64,000 bases of DNA from Candidatus Nealsonbacteria bacterium (GTDB lineage: Bacteria > Patescibacteriota > Minisyncoccia > Minisyncoccales > RBG-13-42-11), in contig JAPLXL010000001.1 of NCBI GenBank assembly GCA_026396115.1, forward strand, positions 2,761-66,760, given 5' to 3'. The notes below the pieces were generated by a model. That model searched no databases and had not been told where the DNA came from. It saw only the letters and a list, made by a program, of their open reading frames with translations. Position numbers and translations under genes: made by a program. Shown piece after piece: positions 38,359 to 58,165 of the stretch; the first letter of the stretch is position 1, and the number at the start of each line of letters is the position of its first letter.

Positions 38359-39507
38359 ATGAAGATTACTATTTTAAAAGATAAACTAAAAGAAGGTATT
38401 AATATAATTGAAAAAATTTCAACCAAATCGATAAGTTTACCAATTTTAAATAATGTTTTAATTTCGACTGAAAAAAATTTTTTAAATTTAACCACCACCG
38501 ATTTAGAAGTCGGAGTAAAATGGTGGTCACTTATTAAGACGGAAAGAGAAGGAAAAGTTGCTGTTCCTTCAAGAATTCTATCCGGTTTTATTAATTTTTT
38601 ACCGAACAGATTGGTAAATTTAGAATTAGAAGATTTTAATTTAAAAATTAAATGTGAAAATTATGAAACAACAATAAAAGGTGTTAACCCGGAAGATTTT
38701 CCCATCATTCCTCAAGTTTCTGACGAAGAAAAGATTGAAGTTCAAATTAAATCTTTTTGTAAAAGTTTAAGTAGCGTGGTGGATGTCGCCAGTATTTCTT
38801 CAACTAAACCAGAAATTTCAGGAGTTTATTTTATCTTTCAAAAAAATTTAATAACAATGGCAGCTACCGATAGTTTCCGTTTAGGAGAGAAGAAAATTTA
38901 TTTAGATTCTCCTTTAAATAATATTTCTAAAGATTATTCATTGATTCTTCCCCAAAAAGCGGCCAAGGAAATTATTAATATTTTTGGCGAAAAAGAAGGT
39001 GTTTTAACAATTTATTTTTCTCCTAATCAAATTTTGTTTGAGACTTCTCTTTTAGAGGTTTCTCACCCCCAAATTCAACTTACTTCAAGATTGATTGAGG
39101 GAGATTATCCAAATTACCAAGAAATTATTCCCAAAAGATACGATACTCGTATTATTTTTTCTCTTGAAGAATTCATCAACCAAATTAAATTGGCATCGCT
39201 TTTTAGCGGGAAAATCAACGAAATTAAATTGAAAATTGATCCCTCAAAAAATCAAATTAATTTTTTTAGTCAAAACTCCGACGTTGGAGAATATCAAAGT
39301 TTTCTGATTGGTAAAGTAGAGGGAAAACCTTGTGAAATTTCTTTTAATTATCGATTTTTATTAGATGGCCTTTTAAACCTTAGCTCCTTGCAACAAAAAA
39401 AACCAGAAGCTGTTTTAGAACTAACTGGCTCAGAAAAGCCGGGTATTTTAAGATTAAAGGATGAAGAGAGTTATCTTTATTTAGTCATGCCGATCAAAAG
39501 CAGTTAA
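38359..39507 (+). CDS. dnaN: DNA polymerase III beta sliding clamp
   Basis: MKITILKDKLKEGINIIEKI..., 382 aa, directly downstream of dnaA. Confidence 0.92.
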   Translation: MKITILKDKLKEGINIIEKISTKSISLPILNNVLISTEKNFLNLTTTDLEVGVKWWSLIKTEREGKVAVPSRILSGFINFLPNRLVNLELEDFNLKIKCENYETTIKGVNPEDFPIIPQVSDEEKIEVQIKSFCKSLSSVVDVASISSTKPEISGVYFIFQKNLITMAATDSFRLGEKKIYLDSPLNNISKDYSLILPQKAAKEIINIFGEKEGVLTIYFSPNQILFETSLLEVSHPQIQLTSRLIEGDYPNYQEIIPKRYDTRIIFSLEEFINQIKLASLFSGKINEIKLKIDPSKNQINFFSQNSDVGEYQSFLIGKVEGKPCEISFNYRFLLDGLLNLSSLQQKKPEAVLELTGSEKPGILRLKDEESYLYLVMPIKSS

Positions 39508-44323: not shown

Positions 44324-44874
44324 ACTTTTTTATTATATCCCTTTTTAATTTTATTTTTAAGTATTAAAATTATTACTCCGAAAAAAATAGCGAGACCTAA
44401 AGCGATTAAAAAAATATGTAAAGAATCAAATGCTCTAGGAAGCTGTTCGCCGATGTCTGCCAATTGCTGTTTTTGAAATTGATTTTTTTGTAATTCTTTG
44501 TTTGGTTCGACTTTTTCTTTTTGGCCAATTTCGTTTTGAGTTGCCGGCAATGACGTTATATTGACGGAGCCCTGAGTTAGAACAGAACTCCAAACCCAAC
44601 CGTTTTCTGTTTTATTATAGGATTGGTCCAGAGGAGCTTTTTGATAGTTGACCTTATCTAATATATTCCCATTTGGCTGGATAAGCAATAATCCGTCTTC
44701 GTCATTATTTAAAGTGATTTTACTTTCGGGTCGGGGAAGAACTAAAAATCCTTGGGCTGAAATTTTTGTTCCAGCAGGAAGCATATAAGTAGTGGTTCCG
44801 CCGGCCGTGTCAACTATTTGCCATTTAGAGAGATCTACTTCAAAATTATTTTGGTTAAAAATCTCAATCCATTC
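44320..44874 (-). pseudogene. C-terminal fragment of a lamin-tail-domain (LTD) membrane protein split by the integrated element
   Basis: It encodes ..EEWIEIFNQNNFEVDLSKWQIVDTAGG... and a C-terminal TM segment. The first 16 codons of track ORF 44320-44925 come from element DNA. Confidence 0.8.
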
Positions 44875-46543
44875 TTCTGTTGTCGCTACAACCGACAGTA
44901 GCAAGTTGTAATGAACTGTTTTCAAAAGGTAGATTAAACTCTATATCCAGTCTTTCGCCGGTTTTAATGATTTTTTCTGTTAATCGTTGGAGAATCTCCC
45001 TCTTAGTTTCATACGTAGCATTTTCAAGGCTTTCTTTCAATTGGGAATAGAGTTTTTTCACAGAACCTATTCGTTTTTCCTTTTCGCCTTCTGTCAATAA
45101 AAGCTGAGATAGTTTCTCCTCCTCTTTTTTAAATGTCTCTATTTCCGTTTCGCATTCCCGGACCTTCTTATCATAGAATTCTTTAGTGATAGAACTTTCA
45201 GCATAAAGTTCGGCATACCTTTCCTTCTCGATGTTTAAAGAATCTATCGCATTTTTTATATTTTTTAACTGTCCCTCAATTTTATTTTTTCTACCTTTTT
45301 GGTTTATGTAATCCTTAAGTTCCTGCATTATTATGTCAGGGTTAGTGAGGATTTCTTTTAACTTATCCCATACAGGTGGCACGATTCGGGATTCGCTTAT
45401 GGTCGGGACGATGCATTTCTTGGGAGTAAAATAGCTCCTATTTCCCGTGCAGAAGTAATATTTTGTTTCGCTTGAACCCCTTTTTTTAGAATGATAAACC
45501 CTTCTGGCGCATTGATAGTGGTAGCCGTCAAAACCGCAAATTATCTTATGTTGAAGAATATAAACTTGCTTTGTATTTCTGGGAGATAACTCTTTGTTCT
45601 TTTGTAGTTGTAACTGAGCTTTCTCGAATAATTTTTCAGGAATAATTTTAAGGTCCCGATCCTCGACTTTTATCCATTCTTCCTTTGGTCTTAAATTTTT
45701 TTCATTTTTTGTTTTTGTAGGATTTTTATATTTTCTGTAGTAATAGATTCCTGTAGCATAGAAATCATTTCTTATGATTCTTCCGATGGTTTTTCTATTC
45801 CACCAACATTTACTTCCTGTTTTCTTTTTTCTCCCTAAGTCGTCATATTTAGTGGGAACTTTCATTCGGTTTATTCTTTGCTGAATTTTGTATTCGCTTA
45901 GTTTTTCTTCTACGAGCCACGAAAAGAGCATTTTTACAATAGAGAGTTCTTGTTCGTTTCTTTTCAGCTTTTGATTTTTTTCGTTTATATCATACCCATA
46001 ACGAGCAGTGCCACTTAGATATTTTCCTTCTTTCATTGCCTTTATCATTCCCTCATTTCTTGACTCTAATCCTACCTCTCGCATCCATTCTGCAAATACT
46101 CCTGCGTTCGCAAACATTGCCCGGCCGGTTGGAGTTGATGTATCAAATGGCTCTGTGACTGATTTAAACTCTATACCTATCTCTCTTAACTCGGCTACCG
46201 TGTTTAATAATAACCTAAGGTTCCTAAAGAATCGATCCATTCTGTAGACAGTGATTACGTCAAATTCTCTATTCTTAGCGTCTGTTAGGAGTTTCTGTAG
46301 TCCGGGGCGTTTATCAACTCCTCCCGAATAGCCAATATCAACATAGATGTGCTTTTTGTCTAAATGATAGTCGTTTAGTCTAATAAAATCTTTTGCCTTT
46401 TCTTCCTGTGTTTGAGGGCTATAACCTTCTTTCCCGGCCTCGTCCGAAGAGCACCTGATATAAATCGCTGCCTTTTTGGTTTTTGTTGTTATCGGTTGTA
46501 TTCCGGCAGGGGGAGAATAGATAATTGTTGATGTTTTCGCCAT
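44864..46543 (-). CDS. Large serine recombinase (integrase)
   Basis: An N-terminal resolvase domain (AAIYIRCSSDEAGKEGYSPQTQ), a recombinase domain, Cys-containing zinc-ribbon-like region (CGFDGYHYQC..YYFC..C) and a C-terminal coiled coil. The last 3 codons and the stop lie in core/host sequence. Confidence 0.9.
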   Translation of the reverse strand: MAKTSTIIYSPPAGIQPITTKTKKAAIYIRCSSDEAGKEGYSPQTQEEKAKDFIRLNDYHLDKKHIYVDIGYSGGVDKRPGLQKLLTDAKNREFDVITVYRMDRFFRNLRLLLNTVAELREIGIEFKSVTEPFDTSTPTGRAMFANAGVFAEWMREVGLESRNEGMIKAMKEGKYLSGTARYGYDINEKNQKLKRNEQELSIVKMLFSWLVEEKLSEYKIQQRINRMKVPTKYDDLGRKKKTGSKCWWNRKTIGRIIRNDFYATGIYYYRKYKNPTKTKNEKNLRPKEEWIKVEDRDLKIIPEKLFEKAQLQLQKNKELSPRNTKQVYILQHKIICGFDGYHYQCARRVYHSKKRGSSETKYYFCTGNRSYFTPKKCIVPTISESRIVPPVWDKLKEILTNPDIIMQELKDYINQKGRKNKIEGQLKNIKNAIDSLNIEKERYAELYAESSITKEFYDKKVRECETEIETFKKEEEKLSQLLLTEGEKEKRIGSVKKLYSQLKESLENATYETKREILQRLTEKIIKTGERLDIEFNLPFENSSLQLATVGCSDNRRMD

Positions 46544-46764: not shown

Positions 46765-47349
46765 TTATTGGTTTTCTTCTTTTATTTCTCCCTGGAGGGC
46801 TTTCCTTAATTCCTCCTGGGCTTCGTGAACGACCTTTATGATTTTCTCGTTTTTGGTTAAGAAGATGTTTATTGGCGGGGCCTGTATTGGTATTATTTCT
46901 TGCCCGATTGATTTCCCTAATTCTATCCTCGCTACTTCCCACATCTTTTTGAAGTCGCTGGCGCTTGGTATTATGTCTCCAGAGAGTATGGCCTGGTTAT
47001 ACCTTATCATTGTATTCTTTACTGCCTTTAAGATATCGGATTTCCTTGCGATGGCTTCTTTGATTGCTATCTGTTCGGCCCTGTCGAATACTTCCTGGTC
47101 CATAATGGAAATTCTTTCTTGCCATTTAAACTTTCGAGACCAATTCTTTAATGTTTCCAAAGAAACCGCCTTTTTTGGTATAGTTTTAGTATAATGCTGG
47201 TATAGTTTTTCCAGGCTTCTTTCTTCTAAATTAAAATAGACCAGAAATGCCTCTCTTTGTTTTGGTGTTTCTTTTGTTGCGATTTGTTTGTTTTTTTCCA
47301 TAGACGTAGTTTTACCCCAGTTGGTCCCTGAAAGCTTCACACTGTCCAT
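46765..47349 (-). CDS. Hypothetical DNA-binding-like protein (terminase-small-subunit-like HTH; possible directionality factor)
   Basis: The SLETLKNWSRKFKWQERI pattern resembles phage small-terminase/HTH N-termini. This is weak evidence, and an alternative start lies at 47301. Confidence 0.4.
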   Translation of the reverse strand: MDSVKLSGTNWGKTTSMEKNKQIATKETPKQREAFLVYFNLEERSLEKLYQHYTKTIPKKAVSLETLKNWSRKFKWQERISIMDQEVFDRAEQIAIKEAIARKSDILKAVKNTMIRYNQAILSGDIIPSASDFKKMWEVARIELGKSIGQEIIPIQAPPINIFLTKNEKIIKVVHEAQEELRKALQGEIKEENQ

Positions 47350-47550: not shown

Positions 47551-47696
47551 CGCAAAACTTTAGTTTTGCCGTTATTATACTCTTAGTATAATAACGATAC
47601 TTAGTATTGTTATAGTTAGTATTGTTAGATGCTCCCACAGATAAATCACTCTACTCTGTCAGACAAATCACCTGATTACTCTGTCAGACAAATCAC
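47551..47696. repeat. Palindrome and iteron cluster (candidate origin/operator of the element)
   Basis: GCAAAACT-TT-AGTTTTGC (47551-47568); CGTTATTATACT-CTT-AGTATAATAACG (47569-47595); TTAGTATTGTTA twice (47600, 47615); ACTCTGTCAGACAAATCACC twice (47652-47671, 47677-47696). Confidence 0.8.
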
Positions 47697-48079
47697 CCTG
47701 CTTTAACTGGAATGCTTTTGAACGGTCTGTATTCTTTTCCTTGATTAGACCAGTTAGACACTGGTTTCCACTCGCTTCTATCTAAAAGCCAATAGACGTT
47801 AGATTGTGTTTTTCCTCGCCTTTCAACAACAATTATATTGCATGCTTTTAATTTTTTAATGCCTCTTTCCGCAGATGCTATCGAAATCCCCAATTCTATC
47901 GCTAAATGTTTCAGAGAAGGAAAACAAGTTTCATCTTTGGCGTGCCGACAAAGAGCCATATAAACAGATTGTCCATAAACTCCAACATTTTTGGCATAAC
48001 CATTGAGAAATTCGTTATCAATATAATAACGATGCTCTTTCCTTTTATCTCTTACTTTGAATAATATTTGTTGTTTCAT
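47693..48079 (-). CDS. Winged-helix/HTH protein (replication-initiator-like or regulator)
   Basis: VYMALCRHAKDETCFPSLKHLAIELGISIASAERGIKKLKACNIIVVERRGK. Confidence 0.6.
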   Translation of the reverse strand: MKQQILFKVRDKRKEHRYYIDNEFLNGYAKNVGVYGQSVYMALCRHAKDETCFPSLKHLAIELGISIASAERGIKKLKACNIIVVERRGKTQSNVYWLLDRSEWKPVSNWSNQGKEYRPFKSIPVKAG

Positions 48080-48386: not shown

Positions 48387-48645
48387 TTGATTTTTTGTTT
48401 ATTAGATGAATTATTTTTGGACAATAATAAATCCCAAGTTTCCCAGAGCAATTTCCGGTTTTGTTCCCGAGATGAATCATTTGATAATCCAACCTTTTTT
48501 ATTTCAAAATTTTTCTCTTTCTGGTTCAGCATAATTACTCCTTGTTATATAAATAAATTAGATTCACCTTGATTTTCTTATTCCTTTTATTACTCTTCGT
48601 TCTGAATTTTTTCTCTTTTACCATTCATTTTTTATTAAATGAAAA

Positions 48646-48669
48646 AACGGAAGCGTTTGCGCTTCCGTT
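48646..48669. terminator. Strong 10-bp hairpin in the divergent control region of the element
   Basis: AACGGAAGCG-TTTG-CGCTTCCGTT, flanked by an A-run on the left and T-rich sequence on the right, so it could terminate in either direction. Confidence 0.45.
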
Positions 48670-49034
48670 TGATATTTCTTTTAAACAAGAAAGGGCTGAA
48701 AAATAAAATCGGAAACGCAAACACAAATAGTGTAAACGTTTTTGACTTTATTTCTCAGCCCTTCAACTCCTCATATCGAGGCGAAAGAATAAAACTGACA
48801 TTTCGGCCGTCAAGCCTAATCTACTTGGTTTTATTTTTCAATTACCTCCGATATTCATAAGGAGAGTCGCATTGAAATCAAAACTTATTAAATACTTAAG
48901 GAACTATATTTTATAATAGCAAGCCCAAGAGGCGATGTCAACTGATTTTATTTTTTGACCGGGTATGCTAATCTAAAATCAGACAACTTAATATTTAATT
49001 GCCTAAACCTTATTTTATAAGGCACGGCATAAAA

Positions 49035-49150
49035 TCCACGTGTATACTGAGCCCGTCGCTCAGGCTCCATACACGTGGTCATATCTCGAAAGAGATATGG
49101 AGACGCAAGTCTCGGCCTAACGGCGGGCTTTGTGTTTTACCGCCAGATAC
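49035..49150 (+). ncRNA. Candidate structured 5' leader RNA; partial resemblance to the c-di-GMP-I (GEMM) riboswitch core
   Basis: CCACGTGTAT..(CTGAGC-N5-GCTCAG)..ATACACGTGG; CATATCTC-GAAA-GAGATATG; GAGAC-GCAA-GTCTC; GGCCTAAC GGCGG-N13-CCGCC. Its GC content is well above the surrounding sequence, and it ends ~30 nt before the ATG at 49177. Confidence 0.35.
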
Positions 49151-49176
49151 AATCTCTATTTGATTAAGTATGATCT

Positions 49177-49764
49177 ATGCTATCAAAAGAAGCGTTAGAT
49201 GCATTCAAAAAACAATATAAAGAGGAGCACGGAAAAGAGTTGTCTGACGATGAGGCTCTGGCTATTGCGCTCCACGAAAACGCTATTTTGCACACACAGA
49301 AATTTATTCCCGCAATAGAAAAAGAAATTGGAGAAATTGATTCCGATACAAAATCTAGGCTTGCAGAAGACATTTCAAGTTTCTTTTTGAGCCTAATTTT
49401 TATTTATTTAGGCTGGGATAAGAAGTTTGATAATCTGCGCCCTCTGGTTCTAAAGGAATACGAGAAATTTATTAAAGATAATTCCGGAGCAATAAATGAA
49501 GGACAGGGTAGAACAATCCATAACTTTCTTATCGATAAGCTACGTGACAATATAATGTGGTTGTCTACGCCATTTGAGAAGAGAGCAGTAGTCGATAAGA
49601 TAGCTTCTGCTATTAAAATTGCCCTCGGTGTATCTGGTCGTATTTCACGTTTTGGACACGACTACAAACCCATTGTCGAACTGTTTGTTTATAATACAGA
49701 GCTCAGCATGTATCACTTCGGAATAATTTCAGAGGCGACTAATAAAGGAAAACTATTTTATTAG
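49177..49764 (+). CDS. Hypothetical protein (first rightward gene of the element)
   Basis: 195-aa ORF with no recognised family. Confidence 0.5.
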   Translation: MLSKEALDAFKKQYKEEHGKELSDDEALAIALHENAILHTQKFIPAIEKEIGEIDSDTKSRLAEDISSFFLSLIFIYLGWDKKFDNLRPLVLKEYEKFIKDNSGAINEGQGRTIHNFLIDKLRDNIMWLSTPFEKRAVVDKIASAIKIALGVSGRISRFGHDYKPIVELFVYNTELSMYHFGIISEATNKGKLFY

Positions 49765-49882
49765 TAACGAATCGTTGACAGGAAGCTTTCTATTTACTCT
49801 TTACTTCGCAAACGACAAATAACTTTATGAAAGAAAAAATTAAGAAAGGTCAGAGATTATTAAAAATTAACATTAAAAAATT

Positions 49883-50227
49883 ATGAAAAAAACAATAATT
49901 ATTACACTTATCTTGGCGCTTTTGTTAATTCCAAGAACAAGCGTTCTCGCCTCAACAACAGATCTTGAAATACAAATATTGAAGATAAGAATCCAGATCC
50001 TTGAATTGCAGATACAACGATTGCTGATTTTGCTGAATGAGATTCAACTAAGTAAAATAGAAACGAATGAAATAACCGAAAAAGCGGTAATTGAGGATAG
50101 TCCAGAAATTAAGCCAGAAAGTAAATCAGAGATAGAAATACCAGCACCACAAAAAAGAGCTCAGGATTGTTTATTACGTCATCCAGGGCAGCCACAATAT
50201 TGTAATTTTTCTGGTGCCCAAGAATAA
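49883..50227 (+). CDS. Small secreted protein
   Basis: A signal peptide MKKTIIITLILALLLIPRTSVLA and a leucine-zipper-like ILKIRIQILELQIQRLLILL. Confidence 0.5.
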   Translation: MKKTIIITLILALLLIPRTSVLASTTDLEIQILKIRIQILELQIQRLLILLNEIQLSKIETNEITEKAVIEDSPEIKPESKSEIEIPAPQKRAQDCLLRHPGQPQYCNFSGAQE

Positions 50228-50240
50228 ATTATAAAAAGAA

Positions 50241-50489
50241 ATGAAAGAGAAAATTGAGAAGATTATAAAATACTTAAATAAATATCTTCCCGACATTCTG
50301 TTTCTAATAGGAGTTTGGGTTGCATCTTATAATTTATTAAGACCATCTCAAAAAGTAGGACTTCTACCGTCTTTGCCATCACTTACACACACCGAATATT
50401 TCACAGAGTATAAGGTTTTGGGAATAATGTTAATTGCGCTTGCTCTTGATATAGCTATTAGACGCTATTCCGCTAAAAGGAATAAATAG
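50241..50489 (+). CDS. Small membrane protein (MKEKIEKI head)
   Basis: 82 aa, two hydrophobic segments. Confidence 0.5.
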   Translation: MKEKIEKIIKYLNKYLPDILFLIGVWVASYNLLRPSQKVGLLPSLPSLTHTEYFTEYKVLGIMLIALALDIAIRRYSAKRNK

Positions 50490-50528
50490 TGAGTAGCGAG
50501 GTGGGGTAAAATAAGGTAAAATAAATCT

Positions 50529-50942
50529 ATGAGAAAAATTACTAAATACTTTGTTGGTGGAATAATTGTATTGGTATTAGTTTTTGTTTTACTAAGTTCT
50601 TTTGTTATTGATGTTGGTATAAATAGTATTTTTTTTATTAAAAGAGATTTTAATCAAGCTTTCACATACCGAGCAACTGGCGATTGTGATTCGTTTGTAA
50701 ATTATTTATCTCGTGATACTGAGAAGTGGAAAAAAACTTGTGAAGAAGAAAAAAGTCATAATGCAGAACCAATAAGAAATTTTGAAATTCAGAATATTTC
50801 GCATCGTTTTGGAAGCGACCGTGCATTTTTACAGGTTGAGCTTACACGAAATACAACAGAGGGAAAAGATTATTCTTATTCAGTAAATTATGAAATGAGA
50901 AAATTTGGATTTGATTGGAAAATTGACCAAGAGATGAAATAA
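50529..50942 (+). CDS. Membrane-anchored hypothetical protein
   Basis: 137 aa with an N-terminal TM segment. Confidence 0.5.
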   Translation: MRKITKYFVGGIIVLVLVFVLLSSFVIDVGINSIFFIKRDFNQAFTYRATGDCDSFVNYLSRDTEKWKKTCEEEKSHNAEPIRNFEIQNISHRFGSDRAFLQVELTRNTTEGKDYSYSVNYEMRKFGFDWKIDQEMK

Positions 50943-50946
50943 ATCT

Positions 50947-51513
50947 ATGAAAGAAAAAATTAAGAAAATTATATGGATTTCTGGTGGGTGCGATTATGGA
51001 AAAACGGCATTTGTAGATTCTATAATCAAAGAATTTAAAAATAAAAATAAGAAAACCTACAAATTAGACGGAAAAGATTTCATAGGTTTTTTAGTTAAAA
51101 ATATAAGGAATAAGAATCCTATTGAGAATTTTGTATCTCGTTTTCAAAACCATGATTTGCTGGTGTTGGACGATATAGATTATGGTTTATTAAGTAAACC
51201 AGCCACCCAAAGAGCAGTTAAAGAGGTAATACAAAGGATAACTGATAACAATAAAACCAAAATAATCTTGATTACACAAAAAAGAGCGAGGAAGATGAGG
51301 AAACTGAAGTTTGACAGCAATTGTTGTGAGTATATCCGATTAAAAGCCCCTTCAACTGATTTCAAGATAAAATTAGTTAAAGAGTGGTTGGAAAAAGAAA
51401 AACTTGCTATCCCACAAGATAAAATTGAAGAAATCGTAAACAAATCTAATAATTTATTCCAACTTAAGGGATTATTGAATCAAATTTCTTTTCCCACAAA
51501 ATATAGCGAGTAG
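50947..51513 (+). CDS. P-loop NTPase, DnaA/DnaC-like AAA core (MKEKIKKI head)
   Basis: A Walker A-like GGCDYGKTAF and a Walker B LLVLDDIDY. Confidence 0.55.
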   Translation: MKEKIKKIIWISGGCDYGKTAFVDSIIKEFKNKNKKTYKLDGKDFIGFLVKNIRNKNPIENFVSRFQNHDLLVLDDIDYGLLSKPATQRAVKEVIQRITDNNKTKIILITQKRARKMRKLKFDSNCCEYIRLKAPSTDFKIKLVKEWLEKEKLAIPQDKIEEIVNKSNNLFQLKGLLNQISFPTKYSE

Positions 51514-51551
51514 CAGGGGCACGGTAGGGCAAAATGAGGTAAAATAAATCT

Positions 51552-51827
51552 ATGAAAGAAAAAATTAAGAAAATTTTATTCGTAATCGCCGAAGTCGGAA
51601 CAGTTACCTGGGCAATTGTAGGAATGGGAACCGTAGTGGCAACCCTAACTAATATCCTTCAAGCATTTACAACTGGACAGATAGGCAAACTACCAGCGAC
51701 TCAACAAGCGATTTTTCGGCTCTCAGAAACAGCAGGTTTTAGTTATCTTATAATAAAGCTATTATTTTATTTTCTTTCGGCAGCTTTAATTCTTTATCTA
51801 TTAAGAAAATATGAAAGGAAAAATTAA
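51552..51827 (+). CDS. Small membrane protein (MKEKIKKI head)
   Basis: 91 aa, two TM segments. Confidence 0.5.
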   Translation: MKEKIKKILFVIAEVGTVTWAIVGMGTVVATLTNILQAFTTGQIGKLPATQQAIFRLSETAGFSYLIIKLLFYFLSAALILYLLRKYERKN

Positions 51828-51836
51828 GAAAACAAA

Positions 51837-51861
51837 ACGCCCATCACTGGGTGTTTTTTTA
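51837..51861 (+). terminator. Intrinsic terminator ending the rightward small-gene array
   Basis: ACGCCCA-TCAC-TGGGTGT followed by T7. Confidence 0.7.
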
Positions 51862-52175: not shown

Positions 52176-53012
52176 ATGGCTAATCTTTTTCAATTAAACA
52201 AAAAATATGGAGAATGGGCTGAAAACACAGTTTTCCATTATTTTAAAGAGAACAGAGATAAAATCGGCTTAGATGTTTTTTATTACGGATCGCAAGTGGC
52301 TACACGCAAAAAAGACACGACGGATGCCCCACTAAGACCCGATTTTATTATTGTTAAAACTCAAAATGTTAAATTTTTGGAGAAGAAATACAACTTAGAT
52401 TTTAATAATATTGATGCCGAACGAATTAAAGAATTGTTTAATCTTAATGAAGACTCCTTCAATTTTATAAAAGATAATCCTCATCTCTGGCTGACAAAGA
52501 TATTAGACAAAACTAAGTTCATGAAAGATTTAGTTTCAAAAGCACATTGTAGATTAGAAATAAAATCAGGCTTCGGTTTTTTTGTCCAAAAAAGATACGA
52601 AAAAGGGCAATATAATATTATTGTAGGAAGTGATTTCCAAAAAAGAATGAACGTTCTGAATAGAAGATTTAACTGTAAGCTTAAAACTTATGTGGCCTAC
52701 GTTCAATTAAATAAAGTTTTTATAGCCGAATTGAATAAGATATTTGGTAAAGGTGGCGAATCAATTGTAAGACTTTATGAAAGACGAGGCACTTCAGATA
52801 TAAATAAAGTAAATACGCAAAATCTTAACTTTCTTAAGAGTTTTGAATTCGCAGACGTAGAGGGAGTTGTAGAAGAAAAAAACGGAGAATACTCCGTTAA
52901 GGCAAAACCATATATAGAGATCGTTGGAGGCACAGTAAGATTTAATTTAGACATGCCTCCTGGCATTCTCAAAAATGTAATAATAGAAATTATTAAGAAT
53001 CTAAAAGAATAA
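52176..53012 (+). CDS. Probable type II restriction endonuclease (PD-ExK)
   Basis: LRPDFIIV ... CRLEIKSG fits PD...ExK. It converges on, and overlaps by 12 nt, the adjacent methyltransferase. Confidence 0.6.
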   Translation: MANLFQLNKKYGEWAENTVFHYFKENRDKIGLDVFYYGSQVATRKKDTTDAPLRPDFIIVKTQNVKFLEKKYNLDFNNIDAERIKELFNLNEDSFNFIKDNPHLWLTKILDKTKFMKDLVSKAHCRLEIKSGFGFFVQKRYEKGQYNIIVGSDFQKRMNVLNRRFNCKLKTYVAYVQLNKVFIAELNKIFGKGGESIVRLYERRGTSDINKVNTQNLNFLKSFEFADVEGVVEEKNGEYSVKAKPYIEIVGGTVRFNLDMPPGILKNVIIEIIKNLKE

Positions 53013-54767
53013 TTTTTTTAAAAGACCATCGATTAAATTTCTATTTTTCTCTTCCATATTTTGATTTTTAATTATTCCATCTACTAATTTTACTATTTGG
53101 TTGTGAATATCAACCTCTTTTTTATTACCCCAACTTACTAATCTGAGAGGTGCTTCTTCTATCGCACTTTGGCTATACTGTATTCTATCTCCTCTGTGCG
53201 GCCCCTTTGTTCTATACCAAATATTGAACCAAGTAGAATTAAGATAACCTAAAATATATTTTAAATTTTCTTTTACAATTACATCTTTATTTCTCACTAA
53301 TACCGCACAATCACTACCACCATAGTATGGTTTATCCGTAAAAGCAAATCTACTTATTTTCGCCCTATCTAAGACAGGCACAAATATTTTTTCATCTCTC
53401 ATTGATTGTTTAAATAAGCCTATATTACGAGGAGTCGCATGATGAAACCACAATACTTTCTCGTATCTTTTTTTCGCTCTTTCTTTATAAGGAAGGAGTT
53501 TTTTATAAATATTGGGGCATAATTTTTTTAACGTTTTTTCATTTTCAATACTATCTATCCATATAAAATATGAAGGGTTCTCGACAAAATATCTTCTTAT
53601 ATTTGTTGCTTTAACTATAGGGATAGTATATTTTAATTCAATTCTTGAGAGTTTGGGTAGTTCTTCATTCGTAAGATGAAATGCTTCATCAAATCCAGTT
53701 ACTGTTCCTACCCCAATTTTGAAGATGTGTTTTAGTCTTAAATAATTACTTTCTAAAATATCTTTTGGATTTCGCTTTAGCACATAATAGTCTGAACTAC
53801 CCAATTTTATAGAATTCACATCCTCCTCTCTGGTGTTTAAAAGTTTAAAATCTTTTTTATCAAATAGATTTATAATGGGAATTGTTCCCAAGTTCTTTGT
53901 ATTTACAAAGGGAATGTTTTTTCTGCATGCTTTTTCTATTTTATCAATGACTTCTTTCTTTTGAGGAGAAACTAATCCCCACATAAGAGAATTAGGGAAT
54001 TGTGGAGTCCAAAAACATTCATAACCATCCTCCATTAAAAAATCTTTCGAATCTAATAATTTAAGATAATTACTGATATTTTTTAATATTTCTTGAGGTC
54101 CTCCAACTCTTTTTTTATACTCCACTACCTTTATTGATTTTCTGAAACCAGCAGAAGTTCCTCCTGATTTAATATATTTTAAAATTATATTGTTCGGGTA
54201 AGCGTCTTTAAATAATTTTAATTCACCGAAATGAACGATAATTTCAAAAAATCCATAATTAGTTAAATAATGTCTTAATTTACTGGCATGAGTTGAATTA
54301 AACCAGAAATAGGGAACAATAAATATAAGCTCTCCTCCTATTTTCAATTTTTCAACTGACCATATAATAAATGGGTAAAGAAGGTCTGCCTCGCCATTTA
54401 ATAAATCCTTCCAAAAAGAGTCCCTTTCTAAAAATTTTCTCGTTTCGGATTTAATATTATTCCAATGGACATAGGGAGGATTTCCTATTATTAAATCAAA
54501 TTTTTCATTCCTACTTGTTTTTAAAAAGTCCTGCAATTGTATAGAGACGCCATCTACTTTTTTGGCTAATTTTGGATCAATTTCATAAGACTTTATATTT
54601 CGGAACCCTTTTTCTAATAGAGATTTTATAAATACTCCTTCACCTGCACATGGTTCTAATATTAAAGAACCTTTCTTTTTAGAAATTAGATTTACCATAA
54701 AGTCTGCCACCTCTTTAGAGGTAAAGTATTGCCCCAACATAATCTTTTTATTCATCAATTTCACCAT
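53001..54767 (-). CDS. N6-adenine DNA methyltransferase (gamma class, Eco57I/TaqI-like) with C-terminal target-recognition domain
   Basis: Motif I LEPCAGEGVF and motif IV GNPPYV. Confidence 0.85.
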   Translation of the reverse strand: MVKLMNKKIMLGQYFTSKEVADFMVNLISKKKGSLILEPCAGEGVFIKSLLEKGFRNIKSYEIDPKLAKKVDGVSIQLQDFLKTSRNEKFDLIIGNPPYVHWNNIKSETRKFLERDSFWKDLLNGEADLLYPFIIWSVEKLKIGGELIFIVPYFWFNSTHASKLRHYLTNYGFFEIIVHFGELKLFKDAYPNNIILKYIKSGGTSAGFRKSIKVVEYKKRVGGPQEILKNISNYLKLLDSKDFLMEDGYECFWTPQFPNSLMWGLVSPQKKEVIDKIEKACRKNIPFVNTKNLGTIPIINLFDKKDFKLLNTREEDVNSIKLGSSDYYVLKRNPKDILESNYLRLKHIFKIGVGTVTGFDEAFHLTNEELPKLSRIELKYTIPIVKATNIRRYFVENPSYFIWIDSIENEKTLKKLCPNIYKKLLPYKERAKKRYEKVLWFHHATPRNIGLFKQSMRDEKIFVPVLDRAKISRFAFTDKPYYGGSDCAVLVRNKDVIVKENLKYILGYLNSTWFNIWYRTKGPHRGDRIQYSQSAIEEAPLRLVSWGNKKEVDIHNQIVKLVDGIIKNQNMEEKNRNLIDGLLKKLFF

Positions 54768-54795
54768 AGCTTGTTCGCTAAAGGATTTATATAAA

Positions 54796-55038
54796 TTATT
54801 TTTTCCATTTAGTTAAACCCCACACACCTTCTCCTAATGGATAAAATCTTATTTCTTTTTTTTGTTTCTTACGCCTCTTATTTTCTAAACTCATATCAAC
54901 ACGAAGAGTTGCTTCCGGAGTCTTTCCTTTTGTAATTATTAGCCCCTTTTTTATAGCTATTTCTATAATATCTTTAACGTGTAATGGTTTTTTATAATCC
55001 TTTAAAATTTTATATGCAGCCTCTGTTTTACTAAGCAT
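54796..55038 (-). CDS. HARE-HTH-like small winged-helix protein
   Basis: MLSKTEAAYKILKDYKKPLHVKDIIEIAIKKGLI...GEGVWGLTKW, upstream of the methyltransferase. Confidence 0.6.
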   Translation of the reverse strand: MLSKTEAAYKILKDYKKPLHVKDIIEIAIKKGLIITKGKTPEATLRVDMSLENKRRKKQKKEIRFYPLGEGVWGLTKWKK

Positions 55039-55102
55039 ACTTTATTAACTATATTTTTATTTATGATAAATTTTAGCCGACCCTTTATCTATATTATATT
55101 TC

Positions 55103-55131
55103 AGTCAACTATAAGTCAACCAAAAGTCAAC
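55103..55131. repeat. Three helically phased AGTCAAC repeats (11-bp period), candidate operator
   Basis: AGTCAAC at 55103, 55114 and 55125, lying 65-95 nt upstream of the HARE-HTH/methyltransferase operon. Confidence 0.7.
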
Positions 55132-55244
55132 CATCATTATTTTAGATAACATTGTTTCTTTTTCTTGATGTTCCTAATGCCCTTTGAAAATGCACCATAT
55201 CTTCAAGATTGAGCAACTTCGAATAGTTTCCGTTAGCTGAACCA

Positions 55245-55275
55245 ACAAAAAAGCCCGTCGCCGGGCAGTTTTTAT
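55245..55275 (-). terminator. Intrinsic terminator after the 411-aa gene
   Basis: The minus strand reads GCCCGG-CGAC-GGGC with a T6 tail (hairpin at 55253-55266). Confidence 0.7.
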
Positions 55276-55302
55276 TTTAGTTAAACTGACACTTAATCAC
55301 TA

Positions 55303-56538
55303 TTATTTAAATTCTTTAGGTGAAGTTGGGTATTCTTTTTCTTGACCAAACATTTTCTCACTCCTAAATAGTTTTTTACACAATTCTATTGTCTTATTTT
55401 CAAAATCATCAACTTTATAGTCCTTAGGTTCGCTGTAAATACAAAAATCAAAAGAAACCATTTTATGGTTTATAGGCTCACTTGCTATGCCTAAAGCTTC
55501 TTTTACTCTTGCGATTTTCCTGGTGCATGCAGTGAGGGTAAACAACCTTTCTCTCCTTTTGTTTTTTTCCTCGGGAGTATACAAAAAGAGAAATGCAATT
55601 TCTGGCCTATGAGGAAAGATAAACATTCTGTAAGCTGGTTTATTGGTTTTGGCCGCCTTTATTGCTTTTCCAATAGCTGCTTTGGCTAACATTCTCCTTT
55701 CTAATCTTCGTAATCTACCCAAAATAGTTGCCACCTTAATATATAGTTGATCCTTAGAGGTATGGGTTTTTTCAATAATGTCATCTATATAATAGCTAAT
55801 CCTATCTGCTCCTACTCTTTCTGCTACTTGGTTTGCATATTTGCCTTTTTTATATTCCTCCCAAAACCCAATCAATGTTACCATATCTGCTTTCTCTTGA
55901 TCAGGAATTGGTTTAAAATGGCGTTCATGAATCCGATAATAGGCGACCAGTTCGCTTTCATCAGTCATATTAAACTTCATATCTTTTGTTATTTTTTCTC
56001 TTTGTTCAAGATATTCAAAGAAATCGGTTGGTGTATCAAACTCATTAACGACATACATGAAATCATTTAAATCAAAAATCTGAGGTGTAAATCCATAATC
56101 AAATATTTTAGGATTTATATCCTTAGCCTCCCTTGCAGAAACAATAGGCATAATATCCTGTTCTAAAACAACAAGATAAAACACTCTTTTAATATTATTT
56201 TTATCAAATTCGAAAGACCCCCTACGATTATTACTTAAGAAAATTCTATGGTTGCTAAATAAGATGCTTTTTGAAAATTTCAACTGTCTTATGCAATCGA
56301 GAGTTGTTTTCCTAATATAGGTGTTGATATTCCCGCTCTTTGGGAATGATTTTGTCCTACATTGCACAACCACCAGAGCATCGTCGAATAAGATAAGGAG
56401 GTCGCATATTTCTCTCTCATACCTACCTTCACGCACCTTAGGATTATCAAAAATAAAATCCTCAAAAAAAGTCTTTTTTAAAAAAGACTTAGTTTTTTGT
56501 TCTGCTAATTTCCCTTTGTTTATTTCGGGCGTAATCAT
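55303..56538 (-). CDS. Hypothetical protein with N-terminal NERD/PD-(D/E)xK-like nuclease region (candidate defence gene)
   Basis: KGKLAEQKTKSFL...EREICDLLILFDDALVVVQCRTKS resembles the NERD layout. The C-terminal ~250 aa are unrecognised. Confidence 0.4.
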   Translation of the reverse strand: MITPEINKGKLAEQKTKSFLKKTFFEDFIFDNPKVREGRYEREICDLLILFDDALVVVQCRTKSFPKSGNINTYIRKTTLDCIRQLKFSKSILFSNHRIFLSNNRRGSFEFDKNNIKRVFYLVVLEQDIMPIVSAREAKDINPKIFDYGFTPQIFDLNDFMYVVNEFDTPTDFFEYLEQREKITKDMKFNMTDESELVAYYRIHERHFKPIPDQEKADMVTLIGFWEEYKKGKYANQVAERVGADRISYYIDDIIEKTHTSKDQLYIKVATILGRLRRLERRMLAKAAIGKAIKAAKTNKPAYRMFIFPHRPEIAFLFLYTPEEKNKRRERLFTLTACTRKIARVKEALGIASEPINHKMVSFDFCIYSEPKDYKVDDFENKTIELCKKLFRSEKMFGQEKEYPTSPKEFK

Positions 56539-56987: not shown

Positions 56988-57452
56988 CTATTCCAAAACT
57001 TTTCTGACATCCGTCTTGCTCGTAATTTTGAAGTATGTCTTATTGTGGTCAAAATATCTTGAGTATCCTTTTAGGCTTCTTCTTCCATTTACCCCCAACC
57101 AAAGACTTTTTCGGTGAGGTTCTATCGTGTATGGGCATTGGTTAGAGCCAGTCCAATAAACCAATCTTCTTTTAGTATATTCTTCATGGATGGTTGGATT
57201 GGTGTTCTTTAAATATTGCCTTAATTTCTGAAATTTTCCTTTAAGGTCTTCGTCCAATACCTTATTTTGAAGAGAGGTAAGCGTATATTTCCTCTTTAGT
57301 TTATGCCTATTTCTTGATTTCGGTGTGCCGTCTTCATTCAAGAAGTTCTGGTAGGTGTTGGCTTTTCTATTGATTTCTTCTCTCGGAAGGACGCTGGTGC
57401 TTACGAATATGCTGAACTTGTCCGTGTCTGTTGTATTGTGGCGACAGTCCAT
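56988..57452 (-). CDS. Basic hypothetical protein at the right end of the element
   Basis: 154-aa ORF. Its annotated ATG lies across the junction in core/host sequence, so the true start is uncertain. Confidence 0.35.
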   Translation of the reverse strand: MDCRHNTTDTDKFSIFVSTSVLPREEINRKANTYQNFLNEDGTPKSRNRHKLKRKYTLTSLQNKVLDEDLKGKFQKLRQYLKNTNPTIHEEYTKRRLVYWTGSNQCPYTIEPHRKSLWLGVNGRRSLKGYSRYFDHNKTYFKITSKTDVRKVLE

Positions 57453-58165
57453 TCCTCCTCCGAGTCCGGTCCTTCGGGAGAAGGAAGAATTTCGTTAATC
57501 ACAACGCCTGTAGGATAAGTTTGTTGAAGTCTGACTTCAACAGTAGGTTCTTCCACAGCAGTTTTTTCAGATTCGGGTTTAGGTTGCGGTTCTGCTTGGA
57601 CGACAATACTATTTTTAGCTTTTGGCGTGCCTCCGGCATTTTGGCTCGTTTGCCAATTATTGGGGTCAGAGCCTTCAAACTGAGGGTTTTTTCTTTCCAT
57701 TATTTGTTTGGTTGAGTTGTCGCCGGCAGACCAGCCACTGGAATCATCTACTCTGTCTATCAAATTGCCAAAATTATCATAAAGTTCTAATGTTTCGCCG
57801 CTATTTCCCAAAGCGCCGGTATAAATCTGGTCAGCCGGAACGTTCGGGACCGTAGTGTCATCCGTTCTTTCTAATAAATAAAAACCATTAGCAGGAATTG
57901 TTCCAGATAAGTTGATTTTTGGCGTTCCGTCTTGGCTAACCAACTGCCAGTTATCAAGATTTATGGGGCTTTCAGTATTGTTATATAACTCTATCCATTC
58001 ATCATTCGCCGAAATATTTGTTCCCATCCAGGCCAGTTCGTTAATGACGACATCCAAAGGGTTAACGGCCTGCGCAGCAAACGCAATAAAAAAAAGAGAT
58101 AAAAAAACTACAACTTTTAACCCCTGTACTAAATATTTAACGCGGGGGCTTGACAAAATTGTCAT
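57448..58165 (-). pseudogene. N-terminal fragment of the split LTD membrane protein
   Basis: A signal/TM segment, one complete LTD (VVINELAWMGTNISANDEWIELYNN...) and the start of a second (VVINEILPSPEGPDSEEEW), broken at the junction. Confidence 0.8.

Follow-up and report, generated by a model that had tools for sequence, protein, structure and literature searches.

LOOT RNA (Rfam RF03000) was described by Weinberg et al. (2017, NAR 45:10811, PMC5737381) and is covered by the Rfam 14 and 15 papers (PMC7779021, PMC11701678); where these papers deal with it, they call it 'metagenomic-based' and assign it neither a function nor a host. Here we analysed a copy in a 64,000-nucleotide stretch of a Candidatus Nealsonbacteria contig (hereafter the window), which shares with the family its five helices, the CCUAAAC, GCAYGG and A-rich linker segments, and the GAAA and GNRA loops, with no difference at the level of the model. 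Beyond the Rfam model, the relatives that we collected have a putative promoter and 5' box, a covarying tail with a U-tract, a link to prophage-like elements of CPR/Patescibacteria and a variable, co-oriented cassette. The LOOT family is already known; the switch model that we propose for it is new and testable.

Terminating riboswitches and attenuators resemble LOOT in their 5' leader position, their complex conserved fold, a pair of mutually exclusive helices with a U-tract at the end of one, and their co-oriented genes. In LOOT, by contrast, the 5' strand of the putative terminator lies deep in the sensor, at the P3 apex, and would enclose a branched loop of ~65 nt, not the loop of a small local hairpin. 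The genes predicted to be regulated by LOOT are heterogeneous and do not belong to one pathway.

In c-di-GMP-I (GEMM-I) riboswitches, a P1 stem closes a junction with two arms, the ligand binds at the junction and a tetraloop–receptor contact forms between the arms; some examples are carried on mobile or phage DNA. The HK022 put element consists of two simple stem-loops that modify polymerase, and it needs no alternative pairing. Put is a structured RNA that acts in cis where a phage operon begins, and it determines whether polymerase terminates. In LOOT, which is a larger RNA, there is an alternative helix with covariation, and Rfam links the two RNAs in no way. Gifsy-1 IsrK is a prophage RNA with its own promoter and a terminator that is partly read through, as decided by alternative structures, and it acts in trans on its own read-through isoform, activating translation (PMC4825925). 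LOOT has no sequence or structure relationship to IsrK, and no trans step is indicated for it.

Family identity of the hairpin block

A preliminary description of this DNA had tentatively proposed that a GC-enriched block of hairpins might be a c-di-GMP-I-like aptamer. Searching Rfam with cmscan instead identified LOOT RNA at 49000-49113 on the plus strand, scoring 84.6 bits where the gathering threshold is 46.4 (E = 1.6e-14). The alignment covered model positions 1-121 of 121 without truncation and was obtained on the plus strand only. This segment is, with near certainty, a full-length member of the family. An nhmmer profile built from 106 relatives found a single LOOT copy in the window, and all 20 of the relatives tested also matched RF03000 (74-106 bits), with the end of the model always at P5. 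When 48550-49250 was scanned permissively for other Rfam families, only LOOT and weak matches to a plain terminator hairpin (48645-48670) were returned. The elements of the RNA, placed by the RF03000 alignment unless stated otherwise, are as follows.

49000-49113, plus strand: LOOT RNA core (RF03000), from cmscan, single by nhmmer
49000-49003 with 49026-49029, plus strand: P1
49008-49013 with 49017-49022, plus strand: P2
49036-49078, plus strand: P3
49080-49099, plus strand: P4, an 8-bp hairpin with a GAAA loop, helix present
49100-49113, plus strand: P5, a 5-bp hairpin with a GCAA loop, helix present
49002-49008 (CCUAAAC) opposite 49023-49027 (CACGG), plus strand: receptor-like internal loop, at upper-case (highly conserved) positions of the Rfam consensus

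The RF03000 architecture is complete, with P1 enclosing P2, followed by the long P3 and the P4 and P5 hairpins, and all helices can form. The hairpins reported earlier correspond to P3, P4 and P5. As reported, a 10-bp helix (CCACGTGTAT/ATACACGTGG) pairs 49036-49045 with 49069-49078 and encloses a 6-bp hairpin (CTGAGC/GCTCAG, 49047-49052 with 49058-49063); the two capped hairpins of 8 and 5 bp are also present, with GAAA at 49088-49091 and GCAA, a GNRA loop, at 49105-49108. What had been missed was the LOOT 5' domain (49000-49033), home of the most conserved nucleotides. The conserved unpaired nucleotides read CCUAAAC, GCACGG (one U-to-C change) and AAAAUC in the window, compared with CCUAAaC, GCAUGG and AAAA.C in the family. 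We take the internal loop CCUAAAC/CACGG to resemble the 11-nt GAAA tetraloop receptor (CCUAAG/UAUGG), and consider it a candidate docking site for the GAAA loop of P4. Its positions were part of the pattern used to search for loci, so their conservation in the locus set is by construction.

The reported GC enrichment also held: GC content is 54% in 49035-49143, whereas the remainder of the intergenic region has 30.5% and the window as a whole 35%. The structure goes far beyond chance. The plus-strand RNA of 48983-49150 reached -60.9 kcal/mol (z = -6.0; 0/200 shuffles did as well), and the minus strand of the same block gave z = -6.7. With both strands at z of about -6 to -7, a strand call by folding energy was rejected. 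The RNA was assigned to the plus strand because of the covariance model, the GNRA loops, the family-wide U·G pairs and the position of the putative promoter. The earlier view of a real, strand-specific multi-hairpin RNA with GNRA loops is borne out.

The aptamer assignment was not supported. In its favour are a GAAA tetraloop hairpin adjoining a second GNRA hairpin, the string GGCCUAAC, which was described as Vc2-like, and the location in a putative 5' leader, and a switch-like architecture is indeed present. Like GEMM-I, LOOT would be a leader RNA; it has a GAAA-capped helix and may form a tetraloop–receptor contact. However, neither the c-di-GMP-I (RF01051) nor the c-di-GMP-II (RF01786) model matched 48550-49250 even when filters were relaxed and E-values up to 10 were accepted, RF01051 gave no match at the gathering threshold across the whole window, and a different family explains the entire stretch at nearly twice its gathering score. 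The Rfam comparison, which had been named as the check on the aptamer, thus returned LOOT and no significant GEMM match. The helix order is different as well. P1 enclosing a two-arm junction is absent, P4 and P5 being consecutive hairpins followed by a tail that can pair back into P3. A GAAA loop is present; the motif that we take to be receptor-like occurs only in the P1/P2 domain, not in a neighbouring arm. The preliminary description itself could fit no P1 helix. Its match to Vc2 at "20 of 26 positions" was not reproduced by any tool, and the proposed similarity falls in the tail and P5; the segment GGCCUAAC is not an aptamer core but belongs to a 3' tail, conserved across the family, whose pairing partner is the P3 apical region. 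A c-di-GMP-I or related cyclic-dinucleotide riboswitch is already contradicted at the family level, and we regard its probability as negligible. The result is corrective: the block is no second-messenger riboswitch but a copy of a catalogued orphan RNA.

Conserved sequence outside the Rfam model

To compare the locus with its relatives, we gathered at least 106 non-redundant LOOT loci with a pattern anchored in the LOOT 5' domain; almost all of them come from CPR/Patescibacteria MAGs and metagenomes. Because of this anchoring, and with at least 106 loci listed, the tail described below may not be universal in the family. About 24 pattern matches in genomes of non-CPR taxa (Bacillus, Pedobacter, Holosporaceae, archaea and others) were due to chance and contained no LOOT. 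Among viral contigs, the 5'-domain pattern gave 5 matches, 0 of them LOOT, and the tail pattern gave 20, all ordinary terminators and none LOOT; blastn against a phage collection likewise returned no LOOT match.

Outside the Rfam model, the LOOT loci compared share a -10-like box and an ACAAYTKAAT box upstream, and a covarying 3' tail and U-rich tract downstream, which extends the conserved LOOT unit at both ends. The corresponding elements in the window are listed here, together with two segments that can pair with the tail.

48966-48979, plus strand: candidate -10 of the LOOT promoter, predicted from consensus matching, either TAAAAT at 48974-48979 (5/6 matches) or TGCTAATCT at 48966-48974
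48983-48992, plus strand: conserved 5' box ACAACTTAAT (family consensus ACAAYTKAAT), outside the Rfam model
49044-49066, plus strand: segment X, which takes in the upper end of the 5' strand of outer P3 and all of the inner P3 hairpin, alternative partner of the 3' tail
49114-49136, plus strand: conserved 3' tail Z (GGCCUAACGGCGGGCUUUGUGUU), outside the Rfam model, earlier described as GGCCUAAC plus GGCGG
49129-49138, plus strand: U-rich tract, outside the Rfam model, terminator-like in combination with the X-Z helix
49140-49146, plus strand: Z' (CCGCCAG), which can pair locally with GGCGG of Z, the GGCGG/CCGCC hairpin of the preliminary description

Across the family, a TATAAT-like hexamer precedes the 5' box, most commonly by 6-8 nt, and is a perfect TATAAT in 21 loci. 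Hexamers with at least 5/6 matches were present upstream of LOOT in 79/104 loci versus 40/104 after the tail. In the window itself, the -10 box is weak and no properly spaced -35 element was found upstream of LOOT. The ACAAYTKAAT box scored at least 9/10 in 55 of 103 loci, compared with 2 of 103 shuffled controls, and where it scored at least 8 it ended 0-4 nt before LOOT nucleotide 1 in 46/68 loci. Both the box and the -10-like hexamer are kept even where LOOT begins only 37-39 nt past the recombinase stop codon. The 5' box ACAACTTAAT probably represents the first transcribed nucleotides. No pairing partner of the box emerged: with P3, P4/P5, the tail or the downstream region, its energies were no better than those of swapped or shuffled controls. 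Nor was a complementary trans target found for it.

On the 3' side, GGCCTAAC at 49114-49121 is followed by GGCGG at 49122-49126, with its partner CCGCC at 49140-49144, as reported earlier. X and Z of the window can form 19 bp at about -29 kcal/mol (RNAduplex). Across the loci, the 17 X-Z pairs were paired in 92.8% of cases, compared with 80.3% in shuffles (0/500 as high) and 37-51% when the strands were slid against each other, and compensatory changes occurred at 17/17 pairs. Consistently, the mean duplex energy was -27.9 kcal/mol, versus -14.6 for shuffled tails and -19.7±0.4 for tails swapped between loci. U·G pairs are dominant, for example in 83/106 and 82/106 loci at two positions; they mark a plus-strand RNA, since the other strand would carry A·C mismatches. 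At least 6 U in 9 nt were found at a fixed position, 13 nt after P5, in 101/106 listed loci. On its own, the tail motif recurs in unrelated phage contigs, where ordinary terminators have it as their 3' half. Support for the local Z-Z' hairpin was modest: at least 5 bp were predicted in 77 of the 106 listed loci, and the 52-nt tail folded at a mean of -11.9 kcal/mol versus -8.5 for shuffled sequences.

The outer part of P3 was 97-99% paired in the same comparison, with all four Watson-Crick pair types, and shows the strongest covariation in the molecule. The X-Z helix shares nucleotides with it in 86/101 loci, with a median linker of 3 nt left, and has a median length of 21 bp, compared with a median of 22 nt for the apical region. 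X-Z would therefore occupy the apical region entirely and in most cases also the uppermost part of outer P3, so that the two helices could not coexist. This exclusion of a full pseudoknot is a steric argument, and a partial loop–tail pseudoknot of ~9 bp could coexist with P3. When minimum-energy folds were predicted, X-Z formed in 64/106 listed sequences and P3 was kept in 42/106, with a mean gain of -7.4 kcal/mol, pointing to near-bistability of the two folds across the family; the window's own minimum-energy fold keeps P3. Judging from the comparison of loci, outer P3 and X-Z are both under selection.

Genomic context and a proposed leader-switch model

The "mobile island" mentioned in the preliminary description is real: LOOT lies in a 12.58-kb serine-recombinase integrative element inside a lamin-tail-domain (LTD) gene.

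44864-46543, minus strand: large serine recombinase (Pfam Resolvase, 6.9e-32; Recombinase; Zn_ribbon_recom), whose stop codon abuts the left attachment core
44868-44874: left junction core TCCATTC, from the junction sequences and the reading frames of the interrupted LTD gene
57448-57454: right junction core TCCATTC, from the junction sequences and the LTD gene reading frames
49177-49764, plus strand: first downstream ORF (195 aa, from the ORF listing), presumed first gene of the LOOT-headed transcription unit

Read on the minus strand, the right flank reaches the junction with VINEILPSPEGPDSEEEW, and the frame resumes at the left junction with IEIFNQNNFEVDLSKWQIVD. Positions 16-108 of the Pfam LTD profile matched the left piece of the split gene. 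The two LTD ORFs share only 31% identity over the domain, yet the junction frames are those of one gene split in its second LTD domain, and their interpretation as paralogues was rejected. GC content was not informative for detecting the island. Among the relatives, the same serine recombinase family was encoded within 5 kb of LOOT in 45 of the 106 listed loci, and in 32 of the 48 with at least 3 kb of upstream flank. The genomic context ties LOOT to mobile, phage-like elements of the little-studied CPR bacteria.

The product of the first downstream ORF had no match in Pfam, PHROGs or PADLOC. The block stands in a divergent control region 63 nt upstream of this ORF, in front of the first rightward gene, as originally stated. 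In 94 of 99 loci the next ORF after LOOT is co-oriented, at a median of 56 nt after P5, and its family varies. Transcription units after LOOT are short, usually with 1-3 ORFs, and upstream neighbours are mostly divergent. Some relatives' cassettes carry SNase, Mrr, PD-(D/E)XK or Sie-like proteins; 'defence cargo' was rejected as a general rule, and the window's post-LOOT ORFs had no PADLOC hits. The window copy of LOOT has a replication-initiator-like gene on one side and a DnaC-like loader gene on the other.

We propose that LOOT heads a gene cassette of a mobile, phage-like element as a switchable 5' leader, a reading to which we give about an even chance. Features expected of a leader switch are present: two mutually exclusive covarying helices, one of them ending at a U-tract, and a co-oriented gene after it. 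A cis-regulatory switch, as suggested in the preliminary description, seems the most likely kind of function on the present analysis. The mechanism, in which the P3 fold (read-through) would compete with the terminator-like X-Z helix, we place just short of even. LOOT would be the 5' leader of its own transcription unit. During transcription, the Rfam fold (P1-P5) would form first, and the P4 GAAA loop would probably lock it by docking into the receptor-like P1/P2 loop. The emerging Z would then stay free or pair with Z', and polymerase would read through into the cassette. Alternatively, Z would invade P3 via the exposed apical loop, giving a long GC-rich helix that ends directly at the U-tract; helix and U-tract together would act as an intrinsic terminator, or otherwise inactivate the transcript. 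If Z invasion has this effect, any factor that stabilises the LOOT fold, be it a small molecule, a protein, RNA polymerase itself or Mg2+/temperature, would turn the cassette on. Since the downstream genes are heterogeneous, a general cue on the state of the cell or the element would be a more likely signal than a metabolite of one pathway.

In this model, the transcription start and 3' ends, like termination at the U-tract, are predictions from sequence. The terminator loop of ~65 nt, branched through the outer P3 3' strand, P4 and P5, is unusually large, so it may terminate poorly, and the -10-like hexamers after the tail in 40/104 loci, in AT-rich DNA, make independent ORF promoters possible. 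We extend the model only tentatively to a hitherto unrecognised class of cis-acting, gene-independent 'cassette switch' carried by CPR/Patescibacteria prophage-like elements, distinct from an sRNA. Just as tentatively, the Rfam fold of such a switch would sense a ligand, a protein or the state of polymerase and compete with the covarying tail for the P3 apex, and, with the same reserve, LOOT would gate read-through from a dedicated promoter into a variable accessory or early-gene cassette. The model gives a concrete two-state scheme for an 'sRNA'-labelled RNA. If confirmed, it would be one of few regulatory mechanisms for CPR mobile elements and would suggest a general way for elements to control cargo in a hotspot adjoining the integrase.

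Rfam types LOOT as 'Gene; sRNA', and the RNA could instead be a free-standing, trans-acting sRNA of ~155-165 nt with X-Z and the U-tract as a constitutive intrinsic terminator, which we consider rather unlikely. Such an sRNA would act on other targets (for example by sequestering a protein, or in element immunity or regulation), the downstream ORFs would be served by leaky read-through or their own promoters, and a dual role as for Gifsy-1 IsrK would be possible. The promoter-like box of its own, the positioned U-tract and a tail motif equal to terminator halves found elsewhere agree with an sRNA, as do the conserved unpaired nucleotides, which in our reading look structural (receptor-like loop, A-rich linker) and not pocket-like. 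There is also a precedent, since prophage IsrK is both a short sRNA and a read-through mRNA with alternative structures (PMC4825925). However, constitutive X-Z pairing would give a mature RNA without outer P3, yet it is outer P3 that covaries most strongly. Additionally, the spacing of the co-oriented downstream ORFs (94/99, median 56 nt) leaves little room for a separate promoter and 5' UTR, and the search for a trans target of the 5' box found none. The genomic context argues more for a cis leader than for a trans-acting sRNA.

An improbable alternative is a static pseudoknotted RNA in which P3 and a shortened loop–tail helix coexist and nothing switches; it could serve as a scaffold, act as a ribozyme or bind polymerase as HK022 put does. 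Central Z is complementary to the exposed P3 apical loop, which would make the ~9-bp pseudoknot sterically plausible, and the GNRA loops and receptor-like motif suggest a compact tertiary fold. The place at the start of a phage-type operon parallels that of put RNA, which a passage in PMC9974457 cites as suppressing pausing and termination. A short pseudoknot, however, would not need covariation over all 17 X-Z pairs, including those nearest outer P3, and the overlap of the duplex with outer P3 nucleotides in 86/101 loci tells against it. Rfam scans gave no match to a ribozyme or put-like family.

An element acting as DNA (a recombination site, replication origin or cruciform for the serine recombinase or replication proteins) is highly improbable: tight linkage to the recombinase, the location between replication-initiator-like and DnaC-like loader genes and the equal thermodynamic folding of both strands speak for it, but the dominant X-Z U·G pairs (83/106, 82/106) would be A·C mismatches on the other strand, the GNRA loops and covariance model are specific to the plus strand, the junction cores themselves are found 4-8 kb off, within the LTD gene, and compensatory changes keep pairing, not sequence.

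The leftward structured region

Upstream of LOOT, the other arm of the control region is predicted to carry a transcription unit in the opposite direction.

48913-48941, minus strand: candidate sigma-70-like promoter (TTGACA-17-TATTAT with TG), back-to-back with the putative LOOT promoter, from consensus matching (11/12 matches)
48636-48906, minus strand: predicted structured non-coding leader or RNA, containing a first hairpin, a second hairpin and an intrinsic terminator (48670-48645), from minimum free energy folding and a terminator scan

The minus strand of 48636-48906 folded at -89 kcal/mol (z = -8.0, 0/200 shuffles as good). No credible minus-strand ORF was found in this leader region, and the structured RNA is not conserved in other LOOT loci. 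Here the preliminary description had placed a 19-bp imperfect hairpin; its 17/19 Watson-Crick pairs on the plus strand were recovered, and its left arm was off by 2 nt, the arms being 48693-48711 and 48743-48761. Both mismatches are A·C on the plus strand and G·U on the minus strand, so that the hairpin is perfect on the minus strand. This hairpin (48693-48761) is predicted to belong to the separate leftward structured transcript.

The structured block is a LOOT RNA

Scanning the whole window with Rfam 15 at gathering thresholds identified four tRNAs and one LOOT RNA (RF03000), and nothing else. The LOOT match lies at 49000-49113 on the plus strand, spans model positions 1-121 of 121 and scores 84.6 bits (gathering score 46.4, E = 1.6e-14). 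The preliminary description had taken this GNRA-looped, multi-hairpin block for a possible c-di-GMP-I (GEMM)-like aptamer. However, a second, permissive scan of 48550-49250 at E≤10 matched no c-di-GMP-I, c-di-GMP-II or any other riboswitch model, so that the GEMM assignment failed its defining test; the only additional matches were weak ones to a terminator hairpin (48645-48670). The Rfam search thus returned a significant family, LOOT, but neither c-di-GMP class. All testable features of LOOT membership were found. The helices, loops and motifs described earlier are all present, essentially at the coordinates claimed, and the helices are LOOT P3, P4 and P5; the 5' domain, which bears the most conserved nucleotides of LOOT, had been overlooked.

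Features of the LOOT block (window coordinates)
48966-48974, plus strand, -10 candidate TGCTAATCT
48974-48979, plus strand, -10 candidate TAAAAT
48983-48992, plus strand, 5' box
49000-49033, 5' domain (P1 and P2)
49036-49045 with 49069-49078, plus strand, P3 outer helix of 10 bp with a 6-bp hairpin inside
49080-49099, plus strand, P4 hairpin of 8 bp with a GAAA loop
49100-49113, plus strand, P5 hairpin of 5 bp with a GCAA loop
49114-49121, plus strand, GGCCUAAC
49114-49136, plus strand, tail Z, window version GGCCUAACGGCGGGCUUUGUGUU
49122-49126, GGCGG, with CCGCC at 49140-49144

The block has a G+C content of 54%, compared with 30.5% in the remaining intergenic region, and the RNA at 48983-49150 gives a fold z of -6.0. 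As a LOOT RNA, the feature belongs to a family that was catalogued before and is, as a kind, not novel. LOOT was discovered in 2017 (PMC5737381), and its Rfam type label is sRNA gene. The Rfam 14 paper counts it as a 'metagenomic-based' RNA (PMC7779021), the CaCoFold paper describes six helices with ~43 bp and unusually many cross-covariations, and the Rfam 15 paper adds two covarying pairs to its structure (PMC11701678). No function is stated in the main text of the discovery paper or in the passages on LOOT of the Rfam 14, CaCoFold and Rfam 15 papers.

Relatives and conserved parts beyond the Rfam model

With a LOOT 5'-domain pattern, we gathered 109 stretches from species-representative genomes and at least 120 from metagenomes, a collection in which LOOT variants and non-CPR members are under-sampled and conservation at the pattern positions holds by construction. 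Among the matches listed, a profile built from the alignment detected near-full LOOT plus tail in 176 of 229 loci; the unmatched loci come almost entirely from taxa outside the CPR (Patescibacteria), indicating chance pattern matches. The Rfam model confirmed 20 of 20 tested loci (74-106 bits). Named hosts of the matched loci, again among the matches listed, are overwhelmingly CPR, including Saccharibacteria, Microgenomates and Parcubacteria lineages, Doudnabacteria and Gracilibacteria. Full-length LOOT was also seen on MAG contigs labelled 'uncultured Gammaproteobacteria' (comparison sequences L006, L016, L025, L031, L039, L040, L043 and L075), one of them 840 kb long; these are either mislabelled CPR bins or genuine spread beyond CPR. 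A Terrybacteria MAG contig (L096) carries two copies 1.2 kb apart (4604-4744 and 5873-6016, plus strand), suggesting consecutive LOOT-headed cassettes.

Context, covariation and folding were analyzed in 106 non-redundant loci from the matches listed. Directly 5' of LOOT lies a box, ACAAYTKAAT, matched at ≥9 of 10 positions in 55/103 loci versus 2/103 shuffled controls; of the 68 loci in which it reaches ≥8 of 10, 46 have the box ending 0-4 nt 5' of LOOT. A TATAAT-like hexamer usually precedes the box by 6-8 nt, and this spacing points to the box as the probable transcription start. The promoter signals of the window's own LOOT are weak. A search for a pairing partner of the box found none.

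Downstream of P5, almost every locus carries the tail GCUGGCGG(C/G)G(A/G)GCUUU(G/U)UGUU (Z), which is complementary to the apical half of P3 (X, 49044-49066 in the window). The mean X-Z duplex energy was -27.9 kcal/mol, compared with -14.6 for shuffled tails and -19.7±0.36 for tails swapped between loci. The 17 X-Z pairs were 92.8% paired in the 106-sequence alignment, versus 80.3% in shuffles (0/500 reach the observed value) and 37-51% when the partners were slid; the slid and swapped controls are given more weight because the shuffles ignore phylogeny. Changes on both sides were found in 17/17 pairs, with an example composition of UA:50, CG:40, UG:15 and other:1. Further, 101/106 loci have a U-rich tract (≥6 of 9 nt) at a constant distance past P5 (median 13 nt), and in 77/106 a downstream CCGCCAG-like segment (Z', 49140-49146 in the window) is able to form pairs with the first part of Z. 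In the window, this pairing is the GGCGG/CCGCC hairpin noted earlier.

Neither the 5'-domain pattern nor the tail motif revealed LOOT in IMG/VR (2.9 million contigs), and LOOT-bearing elements are apparently not called as viruses. The tail motif GCTGGCGGNGRGCTTTNTGT also appears in unrelated IMG/VR phage contigs (L236-L255), as the descending arm and T-tract (3' half) of ordinary local intrinsic terminators.

Alternative folds and a proposed switch

Outer P3 is 97-99% paired at positions 0-8 from the anchored base, with all four Watson-Crick types common, and has 9-11 contiguous pairs in 97/106 sequences. Median lengths are 21 bp for the X-Z duplex and 22 nt for the P3 apical region; X-Z overlaps the 5' strand of outer P3 by ≥1 nucleotide in 86/101 loci and leaves a median of 3 nt to the 3' strand. 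Because a 21-bp helix cannot fit in a loop of this length closed by an intact 10-bp stem, outer P3 and X-Z would alternate, at least partly. When 24 nt of tail were included, 64 of 106 sequences changed to X-Z as their minimum-energy fold and 42, the window's copy among them, kept P3, with a mean energy gain of 7.4 kcal/mol. Judged by these predictions, LOOT RNAs appear thermodynamically close to bistable.

We tentatively propose, with doubt slightly outweighing belief, that LOOT is a leader switch. It would serve as 5' leader to a short transcription unit, and the Rfam fold would be the first to form during transcription, probably locked by docking of the P4 GAAA loop into the CCUAAAC/CA(U/C)GG loop. 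The latter resembles the 11-nt tetraloop receptor and is a candidate docking site. Z would then stay free or pair with Z', permitting read-through; in the off state, Z would enter P3 via the exposed apical loop and build a terminator-like helix at the U-tract. Any stabilizer of the LOOT fold would turn the cassette on. The heterogeneity of the controlled genes makes a pathway metabolite an unlikely signal. The loop of the proposed terminator is unusually large and branched.

It is possible, if rather unlikely, that LOOT is instead an sRNA with a terminator, perhaps dual-function, for which Gifsy-1 IsrK offers a dual-function parallel (PMC4825925). A static pseudoknotted RNA or a put-like element (put: PMC9974457) is improbable. 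Several X-Z positions are predominantly U·G, which marks a plus-strand RNA and speaks against a DNA-level inverted repeat, making a DNA-level element very improbable. With no model match, a c-di-GMP-I riboswitch is practically out of the question. The broader notion that a mobile element carries a cis-acting switch here could well be correct, and for this orphan RNA, its extended architecture, its association with CPR prophages and the two-state model are new leads that can be tested.

Gene context and the integrative element

The first ORF 3' of LOOT is co-oriented in 94/99 loci, starting a median of 56 nt past P5, and most of the upstream neighbours are divergent. The family of this first ORF varies greatly, with many unknowns; examples include SNase, Mrr and PD-(D/E)XK nucleases, a trypsin-like peptidase, and Sie-like and small membrane proteins. 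The window-type serine-recombinase family occurs within 5 kb of LOOT in 45/106 loci, and in 32 of the 48 with ≥3 kb of upstream sequence. A recurrent layout places ParB-methylase, small terminase, large terminase (phrog_38, 2.9e-66) and serine recombinase before LOOT, with 37-39 nt from recombinase stop codon to LOOT; one to three variable ORFs follow, then opposite-strand host genes (DnaJ/DnaK at one locus, FtsX/FtsE at another). This fixed spacing amid varying host flanks indicates that LOOT is part of the element and stands at the head of the element's terminal variable cassette.

The mobile island suspected earlier was borne out as a serine-recombinase element with both junctions located.

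Features of the integrative element (window coordinates)
44864-46543, minus strand, large serine recombinase, left of LOOT
46765-47349, minus strand, small-terminase-like protein, left of LOOT
47693-48079, minus strand, replication-initiator-like HTH protein, left of LOOT
48636-48906, minus strand, second structured RNA, apparently non-coding, with two long hairpins and an intrinsic terminator (48670-48645)
right of LOOT, plus strand, small ORFs and DnaC-like loader
53001-56538, minus strand, type II methyltransferase, HARE-HTH protein and unannotated 411-aa ORF, right of LOOT
58165 down to 44320, minus strand, interrupted host lamin-tail-domain (LTD) gene

Minus-strand frames read across both ends show a single LTD gene split within its second LTD domain, with junctions ...VINEILPSPEGPDSEEEW|TVATIQ... 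and ...VATTEEW|IEIFNQNNFEVDL... (minus-strand reading). Both contain GAATGGA(Y)TG as their common core, which reads TCCATTC on the plus strand and lies at 44868-44874 and 57448-57454; as these cores bound the interruption, the element measures ~12.58 kb. At the left core is the stop codon of the recombinase gene, and the left junction holds an imperfect palindrome (ACTGTCGgttgtagCGACAaCAG). No capsid or large-terminase gene was found within the 12.58 kb, and the integrative element appears to resemble a satellite or plasmid more than a complete prophage. The HTH protein in the window shares 69% identity with one from a Nealsonbacteria MAG, which makes a Parcubacteria-type host likely.

A type IV pilus-type ATPase gene (58318-59625) adjoins the LTD gene. 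dnaA and dnaN (36810-39507, plus strand) lie ~5 kb from the left end, placing the integration near the presumed chromosomal replication origin region. The methyltransferase (PADLOC MTase_II, 4e-116) and HARE-HTH genes adjoin an unannotated 411-aa ORF that could encode the cognate endonuclease; together they may be restriction-modification cargo.

The leftward RNA lies downstream of a strong promoter-like site (48941->48913) and folds at -89 kcal/mol (MFE, z = -8.0). It contains no credible ORF and shows no conservation at other LOOT loci. The 19-bp imperfect hairpin reported earlier does exist, with its left arm at 48693-48711 rather than 48691-48709; on the minus strand, G·U takes the place of both A·C mismatches, and the hairpin is the core of this separate transcript. 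Both divergent operons thus seem headed by structured, terminator-containing leaders.

Directly at the 3' end of the replication-initiator-like HTH_36 gene, the 21-nt sequence TACTCTGTCAGACAAATCACC occurs as a perfect tandem direct repeat (47652-47672 and 47677-47697). The repeat resembles iterons and could indicate where the replication origin of the element lies. Finally, a ~44-nt module, ...AAATAAATCT ATG AAA GAA AAA ATT AAG AAA..., recurs in six copies at ORF starts 3' of LOOT (49811-51838, plus strand), so that several small ORFs begin with MKEKIKK. The copies at 50931 and 51536 are 93% identical, and the repetition may stem from cassette duplication or module-boundary recombination.
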